A stretch of DNA of 64,000 nucleotides from Escherichia coli. GTDB taxonomy: Bacteria > Pseudomonadota > Gammaproteobacteria > Enterobacterales > Enterobacteriaceae. The DNA lies in NCBI RefSeq assembly GCF_003334785.1, contig NZ_QOWV01000001.1; one strand, written 5' to 3'. Shown here piece by piece: positions 18,850-43,874 of this stretch. The notes beneath the pieces are model-generated. The model did no database searches. It saw only the letters and a list, made by a program, of their open reading frames with translations, and had not been told where the DNA came from. Made by a program: the position numbers and the translations under genes. Each line of letters starts with the position of its first letter. The stretch's first letter is position 1.

Positions 18850-18854
18850 AATTA

Positions 18855-18885
18855 AGGCGGCAGCAATGCCGCCTTTTCTTTTTCC
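18855..18885 (+). terminator. rho-independent terminator of the muk operon
   Basis: Hairpin aaggcggc-agcaat-gccgcctt followed by ttctttttcc. Confidence 0.75.
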
Positions 18886-19109
18886 GAAAACTCCGTTTCT
18901 GCACTAAAAAAGTGGCACATTACGGCGCGCTTTTCTTTAAACTTCTTTACATTAGGTTATGTAAAAACGTATCGGCGTTTATATACTGAAGATAAGCCTG
19001 ATGAGTAACAGGCTTGCTCGTCATACTTTCGTGAGTATTGGCGTTGTACAGGCAAGTCGTAAAATAACAGCCTGGCTATTCAGAGTATGATAAAAACAGG
19101 GGGCAAGGG

Positions 19110-20957
19110 ATGTTGCTTAATATGATGTGTGGTCGTCGGCTGTCGGCAATCAGTTTGTGCCTGGCCGTAACATTCGCTCCACTGTTCAATGCGCAGGCCG
19201 ATGAGCCTGAAGTAATCCCTGGCGACAGCCCGGTGGCTGTCAGTGAACAGGGCGAGGCACTGCCGCAGGCGCAAGCCACGGCAATAATGGCGGGGATCCA
19301 GCCATTGCCTGAAGGTGCGGCAGAAAAAGCCCGCACGCAAATCGAATCTCAATTACCCGCAGGTTACAAGCCGGTTTATCTTAACCAGCTTCAACTGTTG
19401 TATGCCGCACGCGATATGCAACCCATGTGGGAAAACCGTGATGCTGTTAAAGCCTTCCAGCAACAGCTGGCAGAGGTGGCGATTGCCGGTTTCCAGCCGC
19501 AGTTTAATAAATGGGTAGAGTTACTGACCGATCCTGGTGTTAACGGGATGGCACGCGACGTGGTGCTCTCTGATGCGATGATGGGCTATCTCCATTTCAT
19601 TGCAAATATTCCGGTCAAAGGCACTCGCTGGCTATATAGCAGTAAACCTTATGCACTTGCAACGCCGCCGCTCTCGGTGATTAACCAATGGCAGCTGGCG
19701 CTGGATAAAGGTCAATTGCCTACGTTTGTTGCAGGACTGGCACCGCAGCATCCGCAATATGCGGCGATGCATGAATCGTTACTGGCCTTACTCTGTGACA
19801 CCAAACCGTGGCCCCAACTGACCGGCAAAGCAACGTTGCGCCCAGGGCAGTGGAGTAACGACGTACCGGCGTTGCGCGAAATATTGCAACGCACAGGCAT
19901 GTTGGACGGGGGGCCGAAAATTACTCTACCTGGCGATGACACGCCAACTGACGCGGTAGTCAGCCCATCCGCTGTTACTGTTGAAACAGCAGAAACTAAG
20001 CCGATGGATAAGCAAACGACGTCTCGTAGTAAACCTGCGCCTGCCGTTCGCGCCGCCTACGATAATGAACTGGTGGAAGCCGTTAAACGTTTTCAGGCAT
20101 GGCAAGGATTGGGGGCAGATGGTGCTATTGGCCCGGCAACACGTGACTGGTTAAACGTAACGCCCGCCCAGCGTGCTGGCGTGTTGGCTCTCAACATCCA
20201 GCGATTGCGCTTGCTGCCAACAGAGCTTTCTACCGGGATCATGGTTAACATTCCGGCCTATTCGCTGGTCTACTATCAGAACGGCAATCAGGTGCTGGAT
20301 TCGCGAGTCATTGTCGGTCGCCCCGATCGCAAAACGCCGATGATGAGCAGTGCCCTTAACAACGTAGTGGTAAACCCGCCGTGGAACGTACCTCCAACTC
20401 TGGCACGCAAAGATATTCTGCCAAAAGTGCGCAACGATCCGGGATATCTCGAAAGCCATGGCTATACGGTGATGCGCGGCTGGAACAGCAGAGAAGCGAT
20501 TGACCCATGGCAGGTTGACTGGTCTACAATCACGGCCTCGAATTTACCGTTCCGCTTCCAGCAGGCTCCAGGCCCACGGAACTCGCTGGGGCGCTATAAA
20601 TTCAATATGCCGAGTTCAGAGGCCATTTATTTGCATGACACGCCGAACCACAATCTGTTCAAGCGTGATACACGCGCATTGAGCTCAGGCTGTGTACGAG
20701 TGAATAAAGCTTCCGATCTGGCGAATATGCTGTTGCAGGATGCAGGCTGGAATGACAAACGTATTTCTGATGCGCTGAAGCAGGGTGATACACGTTACGT
20801 CAATATTCGGCAGTCGATTCCGGTGAATCTCTACTACCTGACGGCCTTTGTTGGTGCAGATGGTCGTACCCAGTATCGTACAGATATTTACAATTATGAT
20901 CTGCCTGCGCGATCCAGCTCGCAAATCGTATCGAAAGCGGAACAATTAATCAGGTAA
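19110..20957 (+). CDS. ldtD: L,D-transpeptidase (forms 3-3 peptidoglycan cross-links)
   Basis: 615-aa ORF with signal peptide and YkuD catalytic motif HDTPNHNLF...SSGCVRV. Confidence 0.9.
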
Positions 20958-21137
20958 ATGAAGTAGTTCGGGGAAATCAGTTGTCGTAATAATTAGCATG
21001 ATTGGGGGCGATTCTCTGCAGCCCCCGTCACTGCTGGGGTTGAGTCATCTTGACGTCTGCTTTACGGGCGGTTAAGGTGCCTCTTGTGCGCCAGAAGTGC
21101 ATATAAACGATAACATTGACCTGTAGACTTGATTATC

Positions 21138-21686
21138 ATGGACAAATTCGACGCTAATCGCCGCAAATTGCTGGCGCTTGGTGGCGTTGCACTCGGTGCC
21201 GCCATCCTGCCGACCCCTGCGTTTGCAACACTCTCTACCCCACGCCCGCGCATTTTGACACTCAATAATCTTCATACCGGAGAGTCAATCAAAGCGGAGT
21301 TTTTCGATGGCAGAGGCTATATTCAGGAAGAATTGGCAAAACTTAACCATTTTTTCCGCGATTACCGCGCGAACAAAATAAAGTCCATCGACCCAGGATT
21401 ATTCGACCAGTTGTATCGCCTGCAAGGGTTGTTAGGCACGCGCAAACCGGTGCAACTCATTTCCGGTTATCGTTCTATTGATACCAACAATGAACTACGC
21501 GCCCGCAGCCGTGGAGTAGCGAAGAAAAGCTATCACACTAAAGGCCAGGCGATGGATTTCCATATTGAAGGTATCGCGTTAAGCAATATTCGCAAAGCCG
21601 CGTTATCTATGCGCGCAGGTGGTGTAGGATATTATCCACGTAGTAACTTTGTGCATATTGATACCGGGCCAGCACGGCACTGGTAG
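21138..21686 (+). CDS. mepK: Tat-exported peptidoglycan L,D-endopeptidase (peptidase M15-like, DUF882)
   Basis: Twin-arginine signal NRRKLLALGGVALGAAILPTPAFA; 182-aa product from ATG 21138; formerly ycbK. Confidence 0.85.
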   Translation: MDKFDANRRKLLALGGVALGAAILPTPAFATLSTPRPRILTLNNLHTGESIKAEFFDGRGYIQEELAKLNHFFRDYRANKIKSIDPGLFDQLYRLQGLLGTRKPVQLISGYRSIDTNNELRARSRGVAKKSYHTKGQAMDFHIEGIALSNIRKAALSMRAGGVGYYPRSNFVHIDTGPARHW

Positions 21687-21712
21687 TAATTGCTTAACGA
21701 AACAGGGGCAGT

Positions 21713-22360
21713 ATGAACTATCGTATTATTCCGGTCACCGCATTCTCCCAGAACTGTTCATTAATCTGGTGTGAACAAACCCGTCTGGCCGCACTGGTCG
21801 ATCCTGGCGGCGATGCGGAAAAAATCAAACAGGAAGTTGATGACAGCGGCCTGACACTGATGCAGATCCTGCTGACGCATGGTCATCTGGACCACGTTGG
21901 CGCAGCGGCGGAACTGGCGCAACATTACGGCGTGCCGGTTTTCGGCCCGGAAAAAGAAGATGAGTTCTGGCTGCAAGGCTTGCCTGCGCAAAGTCGTATG
22001 TTTGGTCTGGAAGAGTGCCAGCCGCTGACGCCAGATCGTTGGCTGAACGAAGGCGATACCATCAGCATAGGGAATGTGACTTTACAGGTGTTACATTGCC
22101 CTGGGCATACGCCGGGTCATGTCGTGTTTTTTGATGATCGGGCAAAGCTGCTGATTTCTGGCGATGTTATTTTCAAAGGCGGAGTAGGGCGCAGTGACTT
22201 CCCGCGTGGCGATCATAATCAACTGATTTCTTCAATCAAAGATAAATTGCTGCCACTGGGGGATGACGTGATATTTATTCCGGGTCACGGACCATTATCC
22301 ACACTTGGTTATGAACGCCTGCATAATCCCTTCCTGCAAGACGAAATGCCCGTCTGGTAA
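21713..22360 (+). CDS. gloC: metallo-beta-lactamase-fold hydrolase (hydroxyacylglutathione hydrolase GloC / YcbL)
   Basis: 215-aa ORF with THGHLDHVG zinc-binding motif. Confidence 0.85.
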
Positions 22361-22372
22361 GGCACATAAAAA

Positions 22373-22393
22373 AGCCCGCTTTTAATGCGGGCC
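22373..22393. terminator. hairpin agcccgc-ttttaat-gcgggcc flanked by A-run (candidate bidirectional terminator after gloC)
   Basis: Inverted repeat with aaaaaa on the 5' side (T-run on minus strand). Confidence 0.5.
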
Positions 22394-22423
22394 TGGATTT
22401 CTGGCAAAGTGCGCTTTGTTTAT

Positions 22424-22457
22424 GCCGGATGCGGCACGAGCGCCTTATCCGGCCTAC
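22424..22457. repeat. REP (repetitive extragenic palindromic) element
   Basis: gccggatgcggc...gccttatccggcctac, canonical REP consensus. Confidence 0.8.
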
Positions 22458-22492
22458 AAAATCGTGCAAATTCAAAATATTGCAGGGGACGC

Positions 22493-22521
22493 GTAGGCCT
22501 GATAAGCGTAGCGCATCAGGC
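22493..22521. repeat. REP element in inverted orientation (with the previous one forms a BIME-like unit)
   Basis: gtaggcctgataagcgtagcgcatcaggc, reverse-complement-like to the first REP. Confidence 0.75.
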
Positions 22522-22581
22522 AATGTTGCGTTTGTCATCAGTCTCAGCCCGCTTTTCAGCGGGCTTCATTGTTTTTAATGC

Positions 22582-23772
22582 TTACAGCACTGCCACAATC
22601 GCTTCGCACAGCGGAGCCATGTTATCTGGTGTCATCCCGGCCACATTTACGCGACCAGAAGCAACCGCATATACGCCAAACTCTTCGCGCAGACGCAGCA
22701 CTTGTTCTTTTGTCAGGCCACTGAAGGAGAACATGCCGTTCTGTTTGATGATAAAGCTGAAGTCGCGGTTTGCGCCTTTTTCCTGCAGCGTATTGACGAA
22801 CAACTGACGCATACGCTGAATACGCTGGCGCATATCAGTCAGCTCTTGTTCCCAAATCGCACGTAACGCATCGTTGCTCAGGATGGTGGCAACAACAGAA
22901 GCGCCGTGTGCTGGTGGGTTAGAGTAGTTAGCGCGAATCGCCGCTTTCATTTGGCTGAATGCGCGATCAACGGTTTCACTGTCGGCAGCAACCAGAGTAC
23001 AAGCGCCAACACGCTCGTTGTACAGGCCAAAGTTTTTAGAGTAGGAACTGGCAACAATCAGCTCTTTATGCATAGCCGCGAAAGCGCGCAGTCCTTCAGC
23101 ATCTTCTTCCAGACCACGGGCAAAACCCTGGTAAGCGAAGTCAAACAGCGGTAACCAGCCTTTCTCAACGGAGAGTTGTGCCAGTGTTTGCCATTGTTCC
23201 AGCGTAGGGTCGATACCGGTTGGGTTATGGCAGCAGCCATGGAACAGCACTACGTCGCCAGCCTGAGCTTCATTCAGGCTGTTAATCAGTGCATCGAAGT
23301 CAAGAGTGTGATTTTCCGCATCATAATAAGCGTATTCACGAACTTCCAGACCTGCAGAGTTAAAGACGCTCTTATGGTTCGGCCAGCTTGGGTTGCTCAC
23401 CCACACACGCTTAACGCTGGTATTTTTTGCCAGGAAATCGGCAGCCACGCGTAGTGCGCCAGTGCCCCCCGGAGTCTGTGCCGTGCGAGCACGTTTGTCA
23501 TTGATCAGGGCGCTACCTTTACCAAACAGCAGTTCCTGAGTGCAGCGACCAAATTCAGGGATGCCGTCAATGCCGAGGTAATTTTTGGTGGTTTCATTTT
23601 CGAGCAGATACTGTTCAGCCTTTTTCACGCTGGTCAGTACCGGGGTTTTGCCCGTCTCATCTTTATAGACACCAATCCCGAGGTTAATTTTGCCGGGACG
23701 TTCATCGGCACGAAACAGATCGGCCAGGCCCAGAATCGGGTCGGCAGGAGCGGCGGTAATGTTCTCAAACAT
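22582..23772 (-). CDS. aspC: aspartate aminotransferase
   Basis: 396-aa ORF; PLP-lysine motif [14 protein letters not shown]. Confidence 0.97.
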
Positions 23773-42777: not shown

Positions 42778-42799
42778 TTTTTTTGCCGCAGGTCAATTC

Positions 42800-42863
42800 C
42801 CTTTTGGTCCGAACTCGCACATAATACGCCCCCGGTTTGCACACCGGGAATCCAGGAGAGTTC
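42800..42863 (+). promoter_or_regulatory. pyrD leader with GC hairpin (cccgg-tttgcaca-ccggg) just 5' of the SD aggagag
   Basis: Inverted repeat read directly; consistent with reported start-site-switching translational control of pyrD. Confidence 0.4.
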
Positions 42864-43874
42864 ATGTACTACCCCTTCGTTCGTAAAGCCCTTTTCCAGC
42901 TCGATCCAGAGCGCGCTCATGAGTTTACTTTTCAGCAATTACGCCGTATTACAGGAACGCCGTTTGAAGCACTGGTGCGGCAGAAAGTGCCTGCGAAACC
43001 TGTTAACTGCATGGGCCTGACGTTTAAAAATCCGCTTGGTCTGGCAGCCGGTCTTGATAAAGACGGGGAGTGCATTGACGCGTTAGGCGCGATGGGATTT
43101 GGATCGATCGAGATCGGTACCGTCACGCCACGTCCACAGCCAGGTAATGACAAGCCGCGTCTCTTTCGTCTGGTAGATGCCGAAGGTTTGATCAACCGTA
43201 TGGGCTTTAATAATCTTGGCGTTGATAACCTCGTAGAGAACGTAAAAAAGGCCCATTATGACGGCGTCCTGGGTATTAACATCGGCAAAAATAAAGATAC
43301 GCCAGTGGAGCAGGGCAAAGATGACTATCTGATTTGTATGGAAAAAATCTATGCCTATGCGGGATATATCGCCATCAATATTTCATCGCCGAATACCCCA
43401 GGATTACGCACGCTGCAATATGGTGAAGCGCTGGATGATCTCTTAACCGCGATTAAAAATAAGCAAAATGATTTGCAAGCGATGCACCATAAATATGTGC
43501 CGATCGCAGTGAAGATCGCGCCGGATCTTTCTGAAGAAGAATTGATCCAGGTTGCCGATAGTTTAGTTCGCCATAATATTGATGGCGTTATTGCAACCAA
43601 TACCACACTCGATCGTTCTCTTGTTCAGGGAATGAAAAATTGCGATCAAACCGGTGGCTTAAGTGGTCGTCCGCTTCAGTTAAAAAGCACCGAAATTATT
43701 CGCCGCTTGTCACTGGAATTAAACGGTCGCTTACCGATCATCGGTGTTGGCGGCATCGACTCGGTTATCGCTGCGCGTGAAAAGATTGCTGCGGGTGCCT
43801 CACTGGTGCAAATTTATTCTGGTTTTATTTTTAAAGGTCCGCCGCTGATTAAAGAAATCGTTACCCATATCTAA
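42864..43874 (+). CDS. pyrD: dihydroorotate dehydrogenase (quinone), class 2
   Basis: 336-aa product from ATG 42864 ([21 protein letters not shown]...). Confidence 0.96.

Follow-up and report, generated by a model that had tools for sequence, protein, structure and literature searches.

In the 64,000-nucleotide stretch of Escherichia coli DNA analyzed here (the window), the genes ldtD, mepK and gloC follow each other on one strand at positions 19110 to 22360. We consider it very likely that this standard E. coli locus consists of two adjacent same-strand transcription units, the reportedly Cpx-controlled ldtD and the reportedly sigma-E-inducible mepK-gloC, in which the gene for a writer of 3-3 peptidoglycan cross-links stands beside the gene for an eraser. 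In this reading LdtD, a Sec-exported YkuD L,D-transpeptidase, makes 3-3 cross-links, and MepK, a zinc peptidase of the M15/LAS type exported by the twin-arginine translocation (Tat) pathway, cuts them. The first unit, reportedly Cpx-controlled, would contain ldtD and end at a conserved stem-loop (21003-27); the second, reportedly sigma-E-inducible, would carry mepK-gloC and start from a promoter-like module, TTGACG-17-TAAGGT (21050-78). The position of the eraser beside the writer may keep the hydrolase on hand whenever 3-3 cross-linking rises.

The segment is the standard chromosomal block mukB, ldtD, mepK-gloC and aspC of E. coli, a locus that has already been described. The open reading frame list and the raw sequence gave three genes on one strand, ldtD (19110-20957), mepK (21138-21686) and gloC (21713-22360), whose boundaries are the same as those of the RefSeq coding sequences in an identical E. 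coli genome. The gap between ldtD and mepK is exactly 180 nt, the value given in the first-pass annotation of this DNA, and the gap between mepK and gloC is 26 nt. The three genes are flanked upstream by mukB and downstream by aspC and ompF, which lie on the opposite strand. In a megablast search, many E. coli chromosomes matched positions 18850-22600 with 100% identity, and at least 80% of the query was covered in 5422 of 5426 complete genomes, with ldtD, mepK, gloC and aspC annotated.

The product of ldtD (ycbB; 19110..20957, plus strand; RefSeq) is a periplasmic YkuD-family L,D-transpeptidase of 615 amino acids. Over residues 1-615 it scored 1201.4 bits against the NCBIfam equivalog NF007891 (cutoff 425), and residues 31-615 matched the solved YcbB structure (PDB 6NTW, E=0). 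The catalytic motif SSGCVRV, which follows the (S/T)xGC(I/V)R pattern, occupies amino acids 525-531 (20682..20702, plus strand) and contains Cys528. The assignment as a YkuD enzyme with this motif, proposed from the first inspection, is thus borne out by the family score, the match to the YcbB entry of the PDB and the catalytic cysteine. The activity itself is known from published work: LdtD makes 3-3 (mDAP-mDAP) peptidoglycan cross-links (bioRxiv 10.1101/2021.02.12.430937; PMC12729407).

The second gene, mepK (ycbK; 21138..21686, plus strand; RefSeq), encodes a Tat-exported zinc L,D-endopeptidase of 182 amino acids that belongs to the Peptidase_M15_2 (DUF882) family. Its start codon is the ATG at 21138, with an in-frame TTG at 21129. 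The protein scored 274.9 bits against the equivalog NF053624 (cutoff 185) and matched the Pfam family Peptidase_M15_2 (PF05951; 3.3e-61) from position 2 to the end of the model, which has 153 positions. Its N terminus, MDKFDANRRKLLALGGVALGAAILPTPAFA (21138..21227, plus strand), is a twin-arginine signal peptide that reads MDKFDANRRKLLALGG…AFA. It combines an RR motif (nt 21159-21164), a hydrophobic core and an AxA cleavage site, arranged as N-RR-KLLALGGVALGAAILPTPAFA, and the RRKLLALGG pointed out from the sequence alone is found at amino acids 8-16, from nt 21159. In 54 diverse homologues R9 was invariant and R8 was conserved in at least 90%. Export by the Tat pathway is published: the identical signal peptide has been catalogued as a Tat signal (PMC7549933), and MepK is among the Tat substrates behind the beta-lactam sensitivity of Salmonella tat mutants (PMC8262268).

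No chain related to MepK was detectable by sequence in the PDB, and the fold was examined on an AlphaFold2 model built from the 54 diverse homologues (mean predicted local distance difference test score, pLDDT, 90.9). The best PDB matches of this model in Foldseek were the Zn D-Ala-D-Ala carboxypeptidase of Streptomyces albus (1LBU), the enzymes LdcB and VanXYc/VanY, N-domains of Hedgehog and L-Ala-D-Glu peptidases of phages, with probabilities of 0.99-1.00, yet the template modelling (TM) scores were modest, 0.33-0.39. As judged from the predicted structure, MepK is a protein of the M15/LAS (Hedgehog / DD-peptidase) fold; together with the PF05951 match, this upholds the M15-like fold first attributed to it. 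The zinc-ligand/catalytic residues H133 (codon at 21534-36), D140 (21555-57) and H173 (21654-56) are encoded within 21534..21656 on the plus strand, and all three were invariant in alignments of 12 close and 54 diverse homologues.

The published biochemistry confirms that MepK cleaves 3-3 cross-links, as the first-pass annotation had reported, with one qualification. A pronounced preference for cross-links of the 3-3 type is cited, but the purified enzyme has dual 4-3/3-3 activity, so that the property is a preference and not exclusivity; the H133A variant is inactive, and production of YcbB/LdtD without MepK is lethal (all from bioRxiv 10.1101/2021.02.12.430937). Proteins of the MepK family with 540-730 amino acids (P0148, P0158, P0162, P0165 and about 30 more) carry an N-terminal MepK domain followed by a long tail of about 450 amino acids, a low-complexity region rich in Ala, Pro and Thr without a match in Pfam or NCBIfam. 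That these long homologues might be writer-eraser fusions was ruled out, as no YkuD domain was found in them.

Transcription of ldtD and mepK as separate units had initially been suggested on the strength of a GC hairpin between the two genes. Separate transcription is supported, chiefly by the published sigma-E and Cpx regulons and by an invariant promoter-like module, more than by the hairpin. According to the literature, ycbK-ycbL (mepK-gloC) is one operon of the sigma-E regulon, induced 9.7- and 6.6-fold, with which ldtD is not co-listed (PMC2731931); a sigma-E peak from chromatin immunoprecipitation and sequencing (ChIP-seq) in Salmonella was assigned to ycbK (PMC4577112); and ldtD is a member of the Cpx regulon (PMC12729407).

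The comparative material consisted of 80 Enterobacteriaceae loci fetched with the MepK alignment (75 complete, one partial and four ending at a contig end), from which the ldtD-mepK spacers were extracted; 75 of these were distinct and 73 were aligned. On the plus strand, downstream of the hairpin, lies a promoter-like module (21050..21078) made of TTGACG (21050-55), a variable spacer of 17 nt and TAAGGT (21073-78). The pattern TTGAC(G/T)-17 nt-TA(A/T)(G/T)GT was present with fixed spacing in 75/75 distinct spacers, and it occurred a single time in the whole 64-kb window, both strands included. Conserved hexamers on either side of a spacer that is fixed in length but variable in sequence typically mark a promoter. 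Because the module has these properties, we infer that it is the active promoter of mepK-gloC, with a transcription start predicted from the sequence at about 21085-21087. The mepK leader would then be around 52 nt long and would carry at its 5′ end a small hairpin, TGTGCGC-CAGAA-GTGCATA (21085..21103, plus strand), which is part of the minimum free energy structure and whose elements CGTGCGC…GTGCATA are conserved.

The GC hairpin is real and conserved. In E. coli the stem-loop covers 20994..21036 on the plus strand, with a GC core at 21003-21027 in which TGGGGGC and GCCCCCG enclose an 11-nt loop, GATTCTCTGCA. When each aligned spacer was folded separately, a hairpin appeared at the same position in 73/73, built from 57 distinct stem sequences (GGGGC/GCCCC, CCAGCC/GGCTGG and CGCCCC/GGGGCG among them), with free energies of -11.7 to -29.3 kcal/mol. 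Its median z-score against dinucleotide shuffles was -2.75, and 50 of the 73 hairpins fell below -2. The other genera mostly have three to five T in the 8 nt 3′ of the stem. On these data 21003-27 is probably an RNA structure that has been conserved, in the simplest reading as the terminator of ldtD, with a U-tract that has degenerated in E. coli; it would then end the ldtD transcripts. The complete 180-nt spacer was also unusually stable (-67.2 kcal/mol, z = -4.4). A long-range pairing seen in the E. coli minimum free energy structure, between TTGTCGT (20981-87) and ACGATAAC (about 21106-13), was discarded, the partner being absent from the Kosakonia and Buttiauxella spacers.

Several observations weigh against two cleanly separated units. 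Compared with an intrinsic terminator, the E. coli hairpin has a long loop of 11 nt, and the 8 nt after the stem (TCACTGCT) hold only three scattered T; the terminator scan did not call it, and it has no T-run. The evidence for termination is therefore weaker than first implied, and with so poor a hairpin a part of the ldtD transcription in E. coli is likely to run on into mepK. The conservation of the structure comes from per-sequence folding and not from a formal covariation statistic, and RNAalifold, run on the 73-sequence MAFFT alignment, gave two pairs only and did not recover the hairpin, because the stems are out of register in the alignment. The module, measured against sigma-70 promoters, agrees at 5/6 positions of the -35 element (TTGACG) and at only 3/6 (T1, A2, T6) of the -10 element (TAAGGT), fewer than the 4/6 that the scan requires. 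Finally, the published sigma-E consensus is GGAACTT, 15-19 nt, TCAAA (PMC1312014), and GGAACTT followed after 15 to 18 nt by TCAAA, TCTAA, TCTGA or TCAGA was not found within four mismatches in the E. coli spacer. The reported sigma-E control was thus not located. A match of this type inside ldtD (GGAACTC-17-TCAAT, 20578) was rejected, since among 75 orthologues its synonymous positions are free to vary, and even one other genome of the E. coli group lacks the match.

An alternative would be a single ldtD-mepK-gloC operon, in which the hairpin would be an mRNA-stabilizing or processing structure and most mepK expression would come from the ldtD promoter by read-through. Three genes on one strand with short gaps, an E. 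coli hairpin that has no U-tract and that the terminator scan did not call, a spacer of tightly conserved length and the presence of the ldtD-mepK pair in distant taxa would all fit such an arrangement. It is nevertheless difficult to reconcile with a ycbK-ycbL operon that has its own sigma-E induction and is listed without ldtD (PMC2731931), with the Salmonella ChIP-seq peak of sigma-E at ycbK (PMC4577112), with an invariant -35/-10-like module of fixed spacing downstream of the hairpin in 75/75 spacers, and with the T-rich stretch that follows the stem in most other genera. We consider the single operon unlikely. A different objection concerns the meaning of the adjacency, which might be neutral inherited synteny of a writer and an eraser that are not functionally coupled. 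The whole mukB-aspC block is collinear in Enterobacteriaceae, so that conservation there does not in itself prove selection on the pair, and a YkuD neighbour is missing beside two of the distant MepK homologues. The pair is found, however, in four of six distant loci despite differing flanks, and production of YcbB/LdtD is lethal without MepK (bioRxiv 10.1101/2021.02.12.430937). We consider neutral synteny highly improbable. Two units, ldtD and mepK-gloC, with the writer beside the eraser for functional reasons, remain the preferred reading.

The synteny data behind this choice extend over two ranges. The order mukB-ldtD-mepK-gloC-(aspC reversed) was kept in all the Enterobacteriaceae loci with enough upstream DNA among the 80 fetched. 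Across these loci, compared with 19110-21686 of the window, the identity was 88-98% for MepK and 69-94% for LdtD, the eraser being the more conserved of the two. At larger distances, an exhaustive search with a limit of E <= 0.001 returned 6125 cluster representatives for the MepK family, and seven distant homologue loci were looked up, six of which were informative. An LdtD-type gene stands directly upstream of the MepK homologue in four of these six. Around a homologue of 56% identity, the LdtD-type gene, mukB and the metallo-beta-lactamase gene are all kept; homologues of 48% and 43% identity have the LdtD-type gene upstream and other flanking genes; and in the fourth locus, the homologue has 730 amino acids, is 48% identical within the MepK domain and is preceded by a gene 39% identical to the catalytic half of LdtD, with the motif SHGCVRV. 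The catalytic motif of the distant LdtD-type neighbours is S(H/S)GC(V/I)RV. Neither of the two other loci has an LdtD-type/YkuD neighbour. Since the association persists in distant loci with different flanking genes, ldtD-mepK looks, on this comparative evidence, like an old, selectively retained gene pair, beyond inherited collinearity alone. The conservation of ldtD-mepK synteny, suggested as a check at the outset, therefore held throughout the family wherever the upstream DNA sufficed and in most of the distant loci. The juxtaposition of the two activities had been called established, and we agree: function and side-by-side arrangement are both already published.

Other parts of the spacer are conserved as well. 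Straight after the ldtD stop codon, two non-coding blocks, TAAATGAAGnAGTTC (20955-69) and TTGTCGTAA (20981-89), span 20955..20989 on the plus strand with at least 90% column conservation in the 73 aligned spacers. They match the sigma-E consensus poorly (AGTAGTT-15-TCGTA) and could represent a weak sigma-E promoter, the site of an upstream regulator of mepK, or a functional part of the ldtD 3′ untranslated region (3′ UTR). We also considered whether 20955-20989 and the hairpin 21003-27 form together a regulatory RNA element, either a leaky terminator/attenuator or a small RNA (sRNA) derived from the ldtD 3′ UTR. This possibility is doubtful, and in the literature consulted we found no published description of either kind of element at ldtD-mepK. 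If it were true, a leaky terminator or attenuator would let a fixed share of the ldtD transcription driven by Cpx continue into mepK and thereby couple the eraser to the writer. Closer to mepK, a block in the leader, TGTAGAC(C/T)TGATTATC (21122..21137, plus strand), immediately precedes the ATG; alignment columns 183-200 are nearly invariant, and 21122-21140 contains no recognizable Shine-Dalgarno sequence before the start codon. MepK is up-regulated in a mutant of the sRNA sdsR (preprint bioRxiv 10.1101/2023.10.02.560498), a hint that would allow the speculation that this block is a regulatory or sRNA target site.

The length of the ldtD-mepK spacer is 174-188 nt in 73/75 loci; the two exceptions, both Salmonella subspecies, have 258-259 nt. 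The long spacers belong to S. enterica diarizonae (L019, 5739-6003) and arizonae (L027, 5740-6003), where an insertion of about 80 nt lies in the predicted mepK leader; despite the insertion, the hairpin and the promoter-like module are kept in both, as is the block before the ATG.

Downstream of mepK, gloC (ycbL; 21713..22360, plus strand; RefSeq) encodes a hydrolase of 215 amino acids with a metallo-beta-lactamase fold (type II glyoxalase II). The translation holds the HxHxDH-type metal motif THGHLDH and the bla_class_B_core domain (3.1e-17), and this agrees with the first description of the gene as a metallo-beta-lactamase-fold hydrolase that follows mepK. The protein remained below the equivalog cutoffs of the glyoxalase II models (TIGR03413 GloB, 110.3 against 200.8; PRK10241, 73.1 against 421); the name GloC is used because the gene is identical to the RefSeq-annotated E. 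coli gene. The gene of this cytoplasmic protein is closely linked to that of a periplasmic endopeptidase: the gap is confined here to 21687-21712, and in the 56%-identity relative (L082, 4549-5205) gloC and mepK overlap by 7 nt. No functional reason for the gloC-mepK pairing is evident.

At the upstream end of the locus, a canonical terminator-like hairpin with a 9-bp stem and a T-rich tail, called by the terminator scan, follows the mukB stop codon (18849) at 18854..18875 on the plus strand and is the upstream boundary of the ldtD transcription unit. Between this hairpin and ldtD, weak candidate CpxR-type half-sites, ATAAC-N5-GTAAA-N5-TTAAA (18936..18960, minus strand; one- and two-mismatch matches), lie about 160 nt upstream of ldtD. 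We did not retain them as a CpxR box, since the pattern matched 65 times in the window against 49 expected by chance, only modestly above background. E. coli SW070917 (NZ_CM129862.1; L090, 345-1691) carries an IS4 insertion between mukB and ldtD, just upstream of ldtD, where it could alter ldtD expression. At the other end, a hairpin with a GC stem flanked by an A-run and a T-rich segment (22372..22394, strand not assigned; the scan called it on the minus strand) follows the gloC stop codon and is likely the end of the mepK-gloC unit.

Rfam gave no family match within 18850-22400. The closest was the sRNA model ES036 (CssrF), which matched at 22458-22500 with 53 bits inside a repetitive extragenic palindrome/bacterial interspersed mosaic element (REP/BIME)-like repeat that separates gloC from aspC and is probably the reason for the approximately 18 megablast placements per genome. 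Elsewhere in the window, a PyrD leader (RF02373) was matched at 42796-42869 on the plus strand with 97.9 bits. None of LdtD, MepK and GloC had a match in PADLOC.

Through 3-3 cross-linking by LdtD, E. coli bypasses the penicillin-binding proteins and resists most beta-lactams, and MepK is needed for growth during LdtD-driven 3-3 cross-linking. The medical relevance of the pair is already established. E. coli has other writers and erasers besides LdtD and MepK. The additions made here are modest: the pair is conserved well beyond Enterobacteriaceae, and the spacer has a strongly conserved layout, in which a hairpin is followed by the invariant promoter-like module and by a leader that lacks a Shine-Dalgarno sequence. 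This architecture, the only slightly new material, offers precise targets for transcript mapping and mutagenesis and may support work on the coupling, or the separation, of writer and eraser expression.

Compared with known systems, the segment is the same locus as ldtD (ycbB, b0925)-mepK (ycbK, b0926)-gloC (ycbL, b0927) of E. coli K-12, with no difference of substance. Like MepK, AmiA, AmiC and SufI/FtsP of E. coli and Salmonella have twin-arginine signals and peptidoglycan-related roles in the periplasm, and all of them are named with MepK as the Tat substrates that account for the beta-lactam sensitivity of tat mutants; however, Sec-targeted AmiA, AmiC and SufI complemented a tat mutant whereas Sec-targeted MepK did not, which the authors ascribed to the zinc cofactor (PMC8262268). 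With the M15/LAS zinc peptidases (1LBU, VanY/VanXY, LdcB, phage endopeptidases and Hedgehog), MepK has in common the fold and the H-x6-D…H pattern of metal ligands. It differs from them in belonging to a separate Pfam family, Peptidase_M15_2 (DUF882), in carrying a Tat signal, and in acting on cross-links as an L,D-endopeptidase and not as a carboxypeptidase.

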